DNA of 64,000 nucleotides, taken from Escherichia coli. GTDB lineage: Bacteria; Pseudomonadota; Gammaproteobacteria; Enterobacterales; Enterobacteriaceae. Positions 49,901 to 58,900 of the stretch are shown here, one piece after another (within the stretch, counting starts at the first letter, position 1; each line of letters starts with the position of its first letter). The position numbers are program-made. Location of the stretch: assembly GCF_003019035.1 (NCBI RefSeq), contig NZ_CP027447.1. The stretch is one strand, 5' to 3'.

Positions 49901-52900
49901 ATCCCCATATTGCCGAGCAGCAGCTGGATCATCGCCATCGTACGGATGTTTTGCGCACCAACGGAGTGTTGCGTCCAGCCGAGGGCATACAGGAACGAGG
50001 CAGTTTTATCATGAGCACTGGTTTCTGCGATGTATTCGCAGACTTTCAGGAACGCGTCTTTCGGCGTGCCACAGATGTTTTCAACCACATCTGGCGTATA
50101 ACGGGAAACGTGCTGTTTCAGCAAGTTCCACACGCAGCGCGGATGTTGCAGCGTGGTATCGCGTTTGGCGAAGCCGTTTTCGTCCAGCTCGTAGGTCCAG
50201 CTGGATTTATCGTACTTGCGTTTTTCCGCGTCGTAGCCGGTGAACAGGCCATCTTCAAAGCCGTAATCCTCACGCACGATCAGGCTGGCGTTGGTATAGG
50301 CTTCGGTGTATTCGCGGTTGAATTTTTCATTGTTCAGCAGGTACAGCAATACGCCTGACAGGAAAGCAATGTCAGTCCCGGAACGAATAGGGGCATAGTA
50401 GTCAGCCACCGCCGCCGTACGTGTAAAGCGAGGATCGATCACAATCAGCTTCGCGCCGTTGTGAATTTTGGCTTCCATCGCCCAGCGGAACCCGACCGGG
50501 TGAGCTTCAGCGGCGTTACCGCCCATCACCACGACGAGGTTGGCATTCTTGATGTCGACCCAGTGGTTGGTCATCGCACCGCGACCAAATGTTGGAGCAA
50601 GACTTGCTACCGTTGGTCCGTGTCAGACACGCGCCTGGTTGTCGACCGCGAGCATACCCAGCGCGCGGGAGAATTTTTGTGTTAAATAGCCGGTTTCGTT
50701 GCTCGACGCGGAAGCACACAGCATCCCGGTGGAGAGCCAGCGGTTAACAGTCACGCCTTCGGCGTTTTGCGCAATGTAGTTCGCATCGCGGTCTTCTTTC
50801 ATCAGTTTGGCGATGCGATCAAACGCCTCTTCCCAACTGATTTGTTGCCATTTATCAGAACCTGGCGCACGGTATTCCGGAAACTTCAGGCGGCTTTCGG
50901 AGTGGATGAAATCCACCAGGCCAGCGCCTTTCGGACAAAGTGCTCCGCGGTTGACCGGGTGATCCGGGTCACCTTCGATATGGAAGATAGATGCTTTGGC
51001 GTTTTTTGCTCCGTCACCGAGGCTGTACATCAACAGCCCACAGCCTACGGAACAATAGGTGCAGGTATTACGGGTTTCGCGGGTGCGCAGCAGTTTATAC
51101 TGCCGGGTTTCCGCGAGTGCTACGCTGGGTGCAAAACCCAGTGCCGCTGCCGTGGTGCCTGCCATACCGCCAGCACAGATCTTAAAGAACTGCCTTCTGC
51201 TGACCTGCATGGATTGCTCCTTGTTTCGACATTGTCACGTCCCATTTACATTCGCTTGCTGCGTGTGCAGGGAGTGGGAGTTATTTTTCTTTGCGGAAGG
51301 GGCCGCAAAGGTCCAGAATTGGCTCAATTTCCCTCCATCCAGGAAGGGTTTGTAACAGAATACCATAATGTTGGTGTGTGTGTTCTTATCTGGTTAAGAG
51401 AAAGTGAAAAAAACACAGCAAAAAGAAATCGAAAATGTGACAAGTGTCACAGGTGTTCGTCAAATTGAGTTATGGCGGCGTGATGATTTACAACACCCAC
51501 GGTTAGATGAGGTGGCGGAAGAGGTTCCCGTTGCGCTGGTCTACAACGGCATTTCGCATGTAGTGATGATGGCGTCACCCAAAGACCTTGAGTACTTTGC
51601 GCTCGGTTTTTCGCTTTCCGAGGGGATTATCGAAAGTCCGCGCGATATCTTCGGTATGGATGTCGTTCCTTCCTGTAATGGTCTGGAAGTGCAAATTGAG
51701 CTTTCCAGCCGCCGCTTTATGGGGTTGAAGGAGCGTCGCCGGGCACTGGCGGGACGTACGGGATGTGGCGTGTGCGGCGTGGAGCAACTTAATGACATCG
51801 GAAAACCGGTGCAGCCGCTACCGTTCACCCAGACGTTTGATCTCAACAAACTGGATGATGCATTACGTCATCTCAATGATTTTCAGCCAGTGGGGCAACT
51901 GACCGGTTGTACTCACGCCGCCGCCTGGATGTTGCCATCTGGCGAACTGGTTGGCGGGCATGAAGACGTGGGTCGCCATGTGGCGCTGGACAAACTGTTA
52001 GGCCGCCGGTCACAAGAAGGGGAAAGCTGGCAGCAAGGTGCGGTGCTGGTTTCCAGCCGTGCCAGTTATGAAATGGTGCAAAAGTCAGCGATGTGCGGCG
52101 TAGAGATTTTGTTTGCGGTGTCTGCCGCGACCACGCTTGCTGTAGAAGTGGCTGAGCGCTGTAATCTGACACTGGTAGGTTTTTGTAAACCGGGTCGGGC
52201 AACGGTTTATACCCATCCGCAGCGTTTGATTCATAATTAAAGAAATACCGCAATTCTGATTCTGGATTGCGGTTTTATTTTTCTATTAAATAATCCTCAA
52301 TATATTATTCAGCATTCAAATAATAATTTCACCACAAGAAATTATCTCGTTAACTCCGGGTTATATCGATATACTCCAGTCGCATTAATCCTTTAAGAAT
52401 TAATCATTATTTATATAAGACATTTTGTTTTAATCATCGCGTCAATAAATAAATGTTTCCGATGAGTGAATGAAATAACAAACCTTGCACCGGTTGTAAA
52501 AACAGCGATGTATTTTCAATAGTAGGTGATGGATTATGAGTATTGAAAAATGAGTACATTACAGTTACCTGGTAGTTCATATTCTACAGAAGTTAATTTA
52601 AACGGCTTAATTGAGGTGCTCAGTAAGCATCTTTACTCCACTCCCGTGGTTGCCGTGCGCGAGCTGGTGCAGAACGGCCATGATGCGATCGTTCGCCGCA
52701 GGATTGAGCAGCCCGATGCACCAAAGGATAACGCGATTCGTGTGGTGGCAGACGTGGCGAAGTCCACTATCACTATTAGCGATACTGGCGCTGGACTGAC
52801 AGAAAGTGAAATTCACGGCTTCCTGGCGACAGTAGGCGTGGGTTATACCCGAATGTTGCGCCAGCAGGATGACAACACCGGTTTAATTGGTATGTTCGGC

Positions 52901-55900: not shown

Positions 55901-58900
55901 CTCCTGGGCAGCACAAAAACAGGAAGCCTGGGATCGACAGCTGGATTATTTACAACAATTGCAGCAACTGATGATTAGCCGTGAAGAAGATATTCGTAAT
56001 ATCCAGTGGGATATCATGGCGACCGCCAGCATCCTGCAACAATGGGATTTGGTTCGTGCTATTGCAGCTGAACTGGAAATCGAACTTACGGAAGGTGAAG
56101 GTTTTATCGACGAAAAATGGGGACTGCTAAACATTCGCTTCCGGGAAAATTATGAATACCGCTATTACTATGCTCAACGTATTGGGCCGGTAACAGCAAG
56201 GATCATTGAGCCAACTTACCGGACCGATTATCCGCAACATGTTGATGAAGTTGTGGTATTCGATGCGGAAATATTGAACACCCAACCAGAGGATGAGGAA
56301 GAACGGAAGAATTTCACGCCACTTTATGCCTGCCTGCAAACCATTATCCCGACTGAGTACGGCGAGTCCTGGTTCTGCGAAGGTGTCATGCCTGGTGAAG
56401 AACAGTTTAATGCCTTCCGTGAGGCGCTCCGTGAACGAAACTGGTACTACTGGAGCAACAGTAACGAGGACTATACGTTAACGGACAGCCAGCAGGGAGA
56501 AGATGCACAGCCGCTGCCCGCGTTCTACTTTGTTATCAGCGCGCCGCGTTCAGTTTCTAAAGGTGATATCGATAAGACCTTGCACGAATTGACCGCTGAC
56601 TGGGAACATCCGTTGTGCTGGTGGCGTCTTGCCAAAGAAGCCGGGGCGAATGAAGAGAAGCATGCTGCTATTTCTGAACGTTATGGAATGTAGGTGAGAG
56701 TTTATATCCTGCGCCAGTGGTAGAGCGGGTAATTAAAATCACTTCCTGCGATTTATATTTTAAGTCGCAGGAATTATTCGGAGTGTGAATGATTTCGGTT
56801 TGTTTATAAGCAAAATGTGTATAGTGACGGATCATTTTTTCATTTAAAATATTATCTCTCTTATCTAAATATTTATAAGGCAATTAAATGAAAAGGAATT
56901 TATTATCTTCCGCTATTATAGTCGCCATCATGGCCCTCGGTCTCACGGGTTGTGATGATAAAAAAGCCGAAACAGAAACGCCCCCGCCTGCCAATAGTCA
57001 ACCTGCCGCACCAGCTCCTGAAGCGAAACCTGCTGAAGCTCCCGTTGCAAAAGCAGAAGTTAAACCTGAAACGCCTGCCCAACCGGTGGTCGATGAACAA
57101 GCGGTTTTCGACGAAAAAATGGATGTCTATATCAAGTGCTACAACAAGTTACAGATCCCGGTACAGCGCAGTCTGGCGCGTTATGCTGACTGGCTGAAAG
57201 ATTTTAAACAGGGGCCTACCGGTAAAGAGAGTACTGTTTATGGCATCTACGGCATTAGTGAATCCAGCCTCGCTGAGTGTGAAAAAGGCGTAAAAAGTGC
57301 TGTGGCGTTAACGCCTGCGCTGCAACCTATTGATGGCGTAGCGGTGAGTTATATCGATGCTGCCGTGGCGTTGGGTAATACCATTAACGAAATGGATAAA
57401 TATTACACCCAGGAAAATTATAAAGACGATGCGTTTGCGAAAGGGAAAACGCTGCACCAGACATTCTTAAAAAATCTGGAAGCCTTTGAACCTGTAGCCG
57501 AATCTTATCATGCGGCGATCCAGGAAATTAATGATAAGCGTCAGCTTGCGGAACTGAAAAATATTGAAGAAAGAGAAGGGAAAACATTCCACTACTATTC
57601 TCTGGCAGTCATGATTTCAGCGAAACAAATTAATAACCTGATATCGCAAGAGAAGTTTGATGTTGATGCGGCAATGAAGAAAGTGTCTGAACTGGAAACG
57701 CTGGTGGCGCAGGCCAAAGAAGCGGATAAAGGCGGCATGAATTTCTCGTTTATTAATTCGGCAGGCCAGTATCAACTCGAGGCTAAAAAATACGTTCGCC
57801 GCATCAGAGATAAAGTCCCGTACTCTGACTGGGATAAAGAGCAACTTCAGGACGCAAACTCAAGCTGGATGGTCGAAGACTCTTTCCCGAGAGCATTACG
57901 CGAGTACAACGAAATGGTCGATGACTATAATCGCCTGCGTTAAACGTTTTTGATGATAAATGCAGTGTCGGATGCGGCGCATCCGACACAGTTCACCCCT
58001 TGTGAAGTAACTCCATAAATGCCTCATATCCTGTTAACCCGGCAATAACCTCTGCCGGATGCTGACACAATACGCTTGCCAGATAGCTAAATATTTTTAG
58101 CTCATGACGCGCATCGGCGGCGGCGCAGGCGATCAAAACATGGTTAATGACTTCGTTATTCACCTCAACTGATTGGGCGAGGGTAATAAAAAATCCACGA
58201 AAACGTCGCTCCTGTTCGCTCCAGCAATGTGGGATGGCGAGGCGATTAACAATCAGGTTTTCACCTTCGCCTTCGCGGGCGATGATCCGTTGCGCTTCAT
58301 CGGCGGTAATATGGTGTTGTGCGACTAATTGAGCACAAATTTGCCGGGTAATATGTTGCCAGCTTTCACCGCGTACATTCGAATAATGAAAACTTCCGGG
58401 GGCAGAGAAAAAACGCTCCGGTTGCCGGCGAATAAACGCCGTCGCCAGAAAATGTTTTATTTGTTCGATACCGGCAGCCGTAATAATGTTTTTTACGGTG
58501 ATGCAATTATTGACCGCGTCATCCAGTAAATAATGGCTGTTATTAATGATCAATAACGGCTCAATCTCTTCGCGAATGGCAACCAGTTCGCTTACGCTGC
58601 GGGCAATAATCACCCGACAATTCAGGACATCGCGCTCAATGGCGAGCTGATTAATAGTAGCAATCGCGTTCTGATCAGAGAGCAAAATGATCGGCTGGCG
58701 TTCGTTTTGATGCCGTTCCAGCGCACAGGCAAAATACAAACCAATCAGATCGCTGTCGAAAAGGGGAATATCGAGTTGTTCACGCAGTAGCGTAATAAAG
58801 TGCAGACTCATATCAAAGGCCGCAGGCCAGGCGGCTTTCAGGTTATTCATGCTGCTTTGGCGGTGCTCTCCAATCCACACCGGCGCGGCAAGGCAACGTA

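Follow-up and report, generated by a model that had tools for sequence, protein, structure and literature searches.

Within a 64,000-nucleotide stretch of Escherichia coli DNA (contig NZ_CP027447.1 of assembly GCF_003019035.1; hereafter the window, with unqualified positions counted from its first nucleotide), two plus-strand genes, ORF1 and ORF2, lie one behind the other between fdhD and yiiG. A first-pass annotation, made by reading the sequence alone, had interpreted them as an Hsp90/HtpG-like GHKL ATPase with a large helical partner, and had taken this compact accessory pair for a candidate anti-phage or other conflict system. The coordinates that it assigned to both open reading frames (ORFs) were borne out and are given below. 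Its supposition of translational coupling is likewise upheld, both by the 1-nt gap between the ORF1 stop and the ORF2 start (TAA-A-ATG; the junction reads CAAGGAAAATAA-A-ATGGAT) and by an ORF2 Shine-Dalgarno sequence, AAGGA, situated within the 3' end of ORF1. The parts of the two genes on which the argument turns are these; TPR stands for tetratricopeptide repeat.

52550..54385, + strand: ORF1, a predicted divergent Hsp90-family ATPase of 611 amino acids
~52586..53164, + strand: ORF1 N-terminal Bergerat domain
~53165..53704, + strand: ORF1 middle domain
53705..54382, + strand: ORF1 divergent C-terminal region
52661..52663, 52673..52675 and 52781..52783, + strand: ORF1 key residues E38, N42 and D78
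52889..52906 and 53510..53512, + strand: ORF1 G114-G119 box and middle-domain R321
54387..56693, + strand: ORF2, the TPR partner, 768 amino acids
54387..55466, + strand: ORF2 N-terminal TPR-like superhelix, residues 1-360
55467..55514, + strand: ORF2 acidic linker, modelled with low confidence, residues 361-376
55515..56072, + strand: ORF2 second TPR array, residues 377-562
56079..56690, + strand: ORF2 alpha/beta C-terminal domain, residues 565-768; its PEDEEER loop is conserved
54687..54689, 54702..54704, 54816..54818 and 54825..54827, + strand: ORF2 Cys101, Cys106, Cys144 and Cys147

ORF1 is a true member of the Hsp90 family, a deep HtpG paralogue encoded in addition to the canonical htpG. 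The motifs quoted in the first-pass annotation are all present: LYSTPVVAVRELVQNGHDA begins at residue 28 and puts N42 at 52673..52675 (AAC), ISDTGAGLT begins at residue 76 and GMFGLGFLSAF at residue 114. These stretches contain the elements diagnostic of Hsp90, namely ExxxN (E38/N42), DxGxG (D78-G80-G82) and the GxxGxG box (G114-G119). Pfam recognizes HATPase_c_3 at residues 32-174 and HSP90 at residues 274-353, and the solved structures of TRAP1 and HtpG match residues 10-359 with E values near 1e-30. In these alignments E38, N42, D78, the G-box and R321 coincide with the catalytic residues of TRAP1 and HtpG, the PTASREDLQ segment that contains R321 aligning to LNLSRELLQ of TRAP1 and NVSREILQ of HtpG. 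Because the catalytic residues (E38, N42, D78-G-x-G, G114-G119 and R321) are all in place and are invariant in orthologues from 23 genera, ORF1 is predicted to be an active ATPase. An identity as a MORC or paraMORC protein, suggested by the HATPase_c_3 match, was rejected, given that ORF1 possesses an Hsp90 middle domain with its catalytic arginine loop and has neither the MORC S5 domain nor a nuclease module.

Comparison with the canonical family members delimits how far the resemblance extends. ORF1 shares with HtpG and TRAP1 the motifs of the Bergerat N-domain, the middle domain with the catalytic arginine loop and a length of ~610 amino acids; it differs from HtpG in that identity to the K-12 protein amounts to 26% over residues 20-357 only, and in that its C-terminal ~250 residues are unrecognizable. 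The NCBIfam HtpG equivalog NF003555 matches residues 14-385 only, with 197.5 bits against a cut-off of 371, and neither this model nor pairwise comparison detects any similarity to HtpG past residue ~357-385. The recognition of an Hsp90/HtpG-like GHKL ATPase therefore stands, as does the remark that the end of the protein does not read like HtpG insofar as it concerns the last ~230-250 residues; extending that remark to all ~450 residues behind the N-domain was too strong, since residues up to ~357-385 align with the Hsp90 middle domain. A second NCBIfam model, NF010683 (PRK14083, 'HSP90 family protein'), aligns over nearly its full length (ORF1 residues 13-571; model positions 8-562 of 604), which suggests the same three-domain plan, and scores 288.5 bits against a curated equivalog cut-off of 455. 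To judge from these scores, ORF1 represents a clade that is related to PRK14083 yet distinct from it, for which databases use the names 'Hsp90xo' and 'HSP90 family protein'. Deep HtpG-like clades have been described as groups B and C (Chen et al., 2006; PMC1525184), and ORF1 belongs to one of them.

ORF2 is acidic and Trp-rich, as first described (pI 4.70; 142 Asp plus Glu against 81 Lys plus Arg; 27 Trp, or 3.5%), and yields weak TPR matches in Pfam. An AlphaFold2 model computed with a 53-sequence alignment, which replaced a single-sequence AlphaFold2 model with a mean predicted local distance difference test (pLDDT) score of 47, is confident (pLDDT 92.3; predicted template modelling score 0.77) and displays ~14 TPR-like hairpins, as expected of a TPR partner. 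The alignment shows five invariant residues, H66, C101, C106, C144 and C147 (C-x4-C ... C-x2-C), in the most conserved stretch of the N-terminal region, where the four cysteines may form a zinc or redox centre. The C-terminal domain carries the conserved motifs ARRTGPVTAR, VVFDA and PEDEEER. A structural similarity search, which the first-pass annotation had proposed, returned TPR arrays resembling those of MalT, AimR, Rap and NprR; the three fold searches run with the whole model found TPR scaffolds or unannotated family members and nothing else. Beyond the TPRs, ORF2 has no relative in PADLOC (E up to 0.1), NCBIfam, Pfam or the PDB. Profile searches of the PDB and Pfam with the C-terminal domain alone gave nothing credible; the best matches, with E 0.3 and among them a Mycobacterium tuberculosis 'paralogous family 11' protein, were dropped as chance-level. 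ORF2 defines two conserved unannotated modules, the Cys4-containing N-terminal region and the alpha/beta C-terminal domain. Full-length homologues of ~750-790 amino acids occur in Klebsiella, Cronobacter, Pseudomonas aeruginosa, Xanthomonas, Stenotrophomonas, Acinetobacter, Rhodocyclaceae and others, and a profile search of 1.84 billion representative sequences found 614 clusters at E <= 1e-30, nearly all of them full-length among the 150 matches listed of the 614. The AlphaFold database (AFDB) also lists members of the family from Kitasatospora, Solirubrobacteraceae and Enhygromyxa.

The distribution of the pair was scanned with one genome per GTDB species, which located relatives in 159 species, and 80 of these loci were fetched. 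Of the 76 loci with sufficient upstream sequence, 75 have an ORF1 homologue immediately in front of the ORF2 homologue, Thorsellia being the exception; they span Gamma-, Beta- and Alphaproteobacteria, Acidobacteria and Chloroflexi, and 5 nt to ~280 nt separate the ends of the two alignments. The pair is also found in P. aeruginosa, in Xanthomonas and on five metagenomic contigs, the two genes overlapping by 4 nt at one extreme and standing 36 nt apart at the other. Nearly every genome with one of the two genes has the other as well. ORF1 is obligately linked to ORF2, with which it is co-inherited, and in this it departs from canonical htpG, which has no TPR partner gene. ORF1 is the better conserved of the two, with 91% identity between E. 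coli and Salmonella against 76% for ORF2, and 57% against 41% between E. coli and P. aeruginosa.

The explanation that we favour, and consider somewhat likelier to be right than wrong, is that the two genes form an ancient, dedicated operon of an Hsp90 paralogue and its TPR co-chaperone (or client), which has been lost from most E. coli. By analogy with other Hsp90s, ORF1 would dimerize and run an ATP-driven clamp cycle. ORF2 would bind it through its TPR surfaces and, as its built-in co-chaperone or adaptor, bring in or retain a particular client; the other possibility is that ORF2 is itself a conformationally regulated client of ORF1. The Cys4 centre could then bind zinc in a structural role or act as a redox switch, specificity for the client or partner could come from the C-terminal domain, and the role of the module as a whole would lie in proteostasis or stress adaptation and not in phage defence. 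The first-pass annotation had named an ordinary htpG paralogue with a known co-chaperone as the finding that would speak against its own proposal; the combination of Hsp90 paralogue and co-chaperone is now the preferred reading, but ORF2 is not a known co-chaperone, and searches of Pfam and of PDB profiles revealed no sequence homology to any.

TPR co-chaperones are regarded as a eukaryotic addition to the Hsp90 system. To our knowledge, the bacterial Hsp90, HtpG, works without co-chaperones, and reviews say so for the co-chaperone-free paralogues. The pair may turn out to be the first case of a bacterial Hsp90 that has a TPR co-chaperone of its own, which would place Hsp90-TPR partnerships before the eukaryotes, a proposition to which we give at most an even chance. 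It would in any case differ from the partnerships with Hop/Sti1, PP5, CHIP, FKBP51/52, Sgt1 and Tom70, in that ORF1 ends without a conserved acidic EEVD-type tail, ORF2 is far larger and adds to its TPRs a novel C-terminal domain and a Cys4 site, and the partnership is operon-encoded. The searchable literature contains no description of the pair, in keeping with its original designation as uncharacterised; the ORF1 clade appears to be known as an annotation only, and ORF2 and the pairing appear to be undescribed. Few clients of bacterial Hsp90 are known (PMC11687934). With 159 or more species representatives in several phyla, the pair is a genetically tractable candidate for a bacterial Hsp90 that works with a co-chaperone or a dedicated client; E. 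coli offers strains that naturally have or lack it, and Xanthomonas and Stenotrophomonas offer copies that are apparently fixed.

Several observations weigh against this interpretation. No EEVD-like tail is present on ORF1, whose C-terminal 25 residues are unconserved and non-acidic across 23 genera; because this tail is unconserved, any docking between ORF1 and ORF2 would have to differ from the eukaryotic EEVD type. No heat-shock promoter was recognized upstream of ORF1, whether by scanning or by eye. Two full-length relatives of ORF2 stand without an Hsp90 partner in their surroundings: that of Thorsellia anophelis (locus L082, 4755..7058) has no Hsp90-like gene within the fetched flanks, and that of Nonomuraea gerenzanensis (locus L018, 6995..9271; 25% identity) has no Hsp90 gene nearby. 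The C-terminal domain of ORF2, for which no fold relative was identified, may have an enzymatic or effector role. Finally, the spread of the module is patchy, taking in 4.7% of E. coli, some P. aeruginosa and a scatter of phyla, from which it follows that the module is dispensable and has probably moved between distant lineages.

The surroundings of the pair vary from genus to genus. In 24 genera it is flanked by unrelated genes of metabolism or regulation, and an all-against-all comparison of the flanking ORFs of these genera revealed no third conserved gene beside it. In Xanthomonas (locus L006, 12391..17798; also L019) the pair lies downstream of radA, between an AraC-type regulator and a stressosome cluster resembling RsbR/RsbS/RsbT/RsbU with histidine kinases; the 22 further Xanthomonas species representatives that were compared all have the two flanks of this reference locus, and in nine Stenotrophomonas species part of the upstream flank recurs. 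The P. aeruginosa pair adjoins a LysR regulator, and the solitary ORF2 relative of Nonomuraea adjoins miaA and dapF, downstream of both. On two unrelated metagenomic contigs (L008, 1..1862; L100, 1..1985) a Peptidase_C14 (caspase-like) gene is found 4-6 kb from the pair, and one of the two also carries genes for extracytoplasmic function (ECF) sigma factors. This peptidase gene is absent from the other contexts and its proximity is probably coincidental.

Regulators next to the pair in both Xanthomonas and P. aeruginosa raise the possibility of a signalling switch. ORF2 would then be a STAND-like sensor scaffold whose own NTPase has been replaced by ORF1, and ORF1 would turn the sensing of a ligand or of redox state by ORF2, through the Cys4 site, into an on/off state controlling an unlinked target such as a transcription or stress pathway. 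The MalT-like TPR fold and the position of the four invariant cysteines and H66 in the most conserved part of ORF2 agree with such a role. The adjoining regulators differ between genera, however, and ORF2 lacks a DNA-binding or other output domain. The likeness to MalT domain III, AimR, Rap and NprR is that of TPR solenoids in general, with 8-12% identity, and ORF2 differs from STAND and RRNPP proteins in having no P-loop NTPase, helix-turn-helix or phosphatase module. Pfam and NCBIfam searches disclosed no P-loop NTPase of the NB-ARC or NACHT type in either ORF. We know of no precedent for an Hsp90 as the NTPase of a STAND-like switch, which also counts against the proposal, and we regard it as unlikely.

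The site itself was surveyed in E. coli. In K-12 strain MG1655 the cassette is absent and fdhD and yiiG are 152 bp apart, confirming the short spacer stated in the first-pass annotation, and the supposed accessory status holds as well: of 5426 complete E. coli genomes, 254 (4.7%) have the cassette, each in a single chromosomal copy. The contrary outcome considered at the outset, that both genes might be housekeeping genes in essentially all E. coli including K-12, is not what this count shows. A junction probe matched 5424 genomes, of which 5077 have fdhD and yiiG within ~1 kb of each other and no large insert. The other junction states sampled are due to IS5 or to deletions; strain F11 (B2-type), for example, has a yiiG truncated at its 5' end 88 bp behind fdhD. 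Neither this census nor the exceptions sampled disclosed alternative cargo, and the junction survey thus gives no sign of a hotspot for variable cargo.

Outside E. coli, the interval between fdhD and yiiG houses the pair in three further Escherichia species (E. marmotae, E. fergusonii and E. whittamii) and in Superficieibacter; Salmonella Infantis SARB27 has it in the fdhD-rha region. Among the E. coli carriers the cassette falls into two deep allele classes, with 77 genomes at >=99% identity and 163 at 90-95%, and the flanks are comparably divergent. The ratio of nonsynonymous to synonymous substitution rates (dN/dS) is 0.024-0.040 for ORF1, 0.023-0.064 for the core gene fdhD and 0.09-0.12 for ORF2. 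Between E. coli and Salmonella, synonymous divergence (dS) is nearly the same for ORF1 (1.82) as for fdhD (1.89), the pattern to be expected of an operon that has diverged in situ alongside its neighbour; at the protein level ORF1 is 91% identical and FdhD 83%. A recent horizontal insertion was rejected, given this agreement in dS and a locus held in common across genera. In searches of phages and plasmids with tblastn, ORF2 matched four records, all apparently misfiled and none of them a genuine phage: the 'phage' AFYI01000005.1 is a Salmonella whole-genome shotgun contig; the 'plasmids' NZ_LT559118.1 (Nonomuraea, 11.85 Mb) and NZ_CP131792.1 (P. aeruginosa, 847 kb) are chromosome-sized; and the 29-kb 'plasmid' NZ_CP034650.1 of Xanthomonas vasicola has the chromosomal gene order from radA to the stressosome.

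These data bear directly on the anti-phage proposal, according to which the TPR protein senses a protein or peptide of an invader, the GHKL ATPase drives a conformational or oligomeric switch, and the ORF2 C-terminal domain or the trapping of an essential host client executes the response. Several features of the pair lend it some appeal. The cassette is accessory in E. coli and patchy at the level of phyla, the operon is compact, coupled and equipped with its own AT-rich leader, ORF2 evolves ~3 times faster than ORF1, and the closest structural counterparts of its TPR arrays are ligand-sensing proteins. GHKL ATPases are moreover known from defence systems, and in a search of PADLOC-DB v2.0.0 the N-terminal domain of ORF1 weakly matched TmtA of Tiamat (best E 5.7e-6, residues 13-137) in addition to a type II restriction endonuclease model. 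The match is confined to the GHKL fold, however: ORF1 and TmtA share an N-terminal ATP-binding fold of ~110 residues, also matched by HATPase_c_3, whereas the TmtA profiles extend over 1300-1800 positions whose remainder has no equivalent in ORF1. No PADLOC family matches ORF2, and the genomic context of the pair is not defence-like, which sets it apart from the GHKL anti-phage systems; the earlier statement that the pair matches no named defence system is accordingly correct.

The inference drawn from the architecture, an insertion of the anti-phage type, finds no support. The E. coli junction holds no variable cargo, phages and genuine plasmids do not carry the cassette, and no conserved defence gene adjoins it in the 24 genera. 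Its position is fixed in the Escherichia species, in Superficieibacter and Salmonella and, with all 22 loci syntenic, in Xanthomonas. ORF1 is under the same constraint as fdhD and has the dS of its flank, with no sign of recent transfer, and Pfam and profile searches found no recognizable effector-type domain in ORF2. We accordingly hold a role in anti-phage defence or conflict to be improbable. Much the same applies, with a shade more doubt, to its most far-reaching form, a new Hsp90-based immune module that would convert an invader peptide or protein into a lethal or protective output via the ORF2 C-terminal domain and would have become chromosomally fixed in some clades. As a general caution, an accessory ATPase with a partner gene, flanked by core genes, is insufficient to call a defence system.

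The dedicated Hsp90-paralogue operon that we prefer is most simply accommodated, at this site, by an ancestral presence between fdhD and yiiG followed by loss from most E. coli lineages. On this reading the operon was in place there in the ancestor of Escherichia, and probably in the common ancestor of Escherichia and Salmonella. The boundaries of the cassette preserve traces of its history. The spacer between ORF2 and yiiG, put at about 195 bp in the first-pass annotation, measures 194 bp with 32% G+C and contains two features.

56700..56739, + strand: degenerate second copy of the fdhD 3' end, the orthologue of the K-12 fdhD terminus
56743..56773, + strand: inverted repeat TTCCTGCGA...TCGCAGGAA, counterpart of the hairpin directly after fdhD in K-12

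Aligned with the spacer, the end of K-12 fdhD scores 19, a value reached in none of 1000 shuffles (8.8 +/- 1.3), and similar relics of the fdhD 3' end lie behind ORF2 in other Escherichia alleles. Together with the live fdhD 3' end (~52204..52240), the relic forms an imperfect direct repeat that brackets the cassette. FdhD of carrier strains ends in ...RLIHN (278 amino acids) and that of K-12 in ...RLSN (277 amino acids). The inverted repeat is the likely terminator of the operon, missed by the terminator scan because its loop is 13 nt long.

Loss from E. coli might have come about when the two copies of the fdhD 3' end recombined with each other. Most likely both processes took place, at different times, an ancient integration creating the repeat and recombination between the repeats creating the empty site. 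A direct repeat of this kind, as left by site-specific integration into the 3' end of a gene, taken with the absence of the cassette from 95% of E. coli, could also denote the decaying remnant of an ancient integrated element without function in E. coli. The genes themselves argue otherwise: the 30 records listed, out of 254 E. coli carriers, all annotate the two ORFs as intact protein-coding genes, the ORFs are intact and under strong purifying selection in the Escherichia species examined (dN/dS 0.03 and 0.1), the lengths of both proteins are tightly conserved across phyla, and no integrase or other mobility gene is present. Such a remnant is very improbable.

The region upstream of ORF1 comprises three features.

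52241..52549, + strand: AT-rich leader/promoter region of the operon, 309 bp, 29% G+C
52247..52273, + strand: intrinsic terminator-like hairpin of fdhD, a 10-bp stem ACCGCAATTCTGATTCTGGATTGCGGT followed by the T-run TTTATTTTT
52536..52553, + strand: five-codon mini-ORF MSIEK* (ATG AGT ATT GAA AAA TGA)

The leader is indeed very AT-rich, as first noted, when compared with the window (50% G+C) and the two genes (49-51%). Because a good intrinsic terminator follows fdhD, the ORF1-ORF2 pair must have a promoter of its own; a search of the plus strand of the leader for the sigma-70 consensus upstream of ORF1 gave nothing strong or convincing. The last ~60 nt of the leader are kept across Escherichia and largely also in Salmonella. 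They include the mini-ORF, which is preceded by a strong Shine-Dalgarno sequence (AGGTGA, 52524..52529) and whose TGA stop overlaps the ATG of ORF1 (ATGA), ORF1 itself having no good Shine-Dalgarno sequence. The ~32-nt element formed by the Shine-Dalgarno sequence and mini-ORF (52524..52553) is identical in the six Escherichia loci compared. Its Salmonella version differs at two positions and encodes MSVEK*, the remainder of the spacer having diverged, and the Superficieibacter locus is without it. The mini-ORF is a possible translational-coupling leader for ORF1.

Among the neighbouring genes, yiiG (56888..57943), which encodes a DUF3829 lipoprotein, is unusually variable, with 77-90% protein identity among Escherichia alleles and a dN/dS of ~0.16-0.22, far above that of its neighbours. 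The B2-type F11 and AVS0171, where the frv operon is lacking too, carry 5'-truncated versions, and three yiiG paralogues surround the cassette in Salmonella Infantis SARB27 (locus L017, 2317..3345, 3528..4502 and 9897..10994). The gene frvX (59831..60817, - strand) seems truncated: its ORF stops ~90 nt short of the frvR start, the point at which K-12 frvX ends, in agreement with its annotation as an 'internal stop' pseudogene in the 100%-identical strain SCU-301. Lastly, fdoG (48160..51210, - strand) is listed as two ORFs of 804 and 195 amino acids, divided by an in-frame TGA near 50620 that we take to be the known selenocysteine codon of formate dehydrogenase O rather than the mark of a pseudogene.

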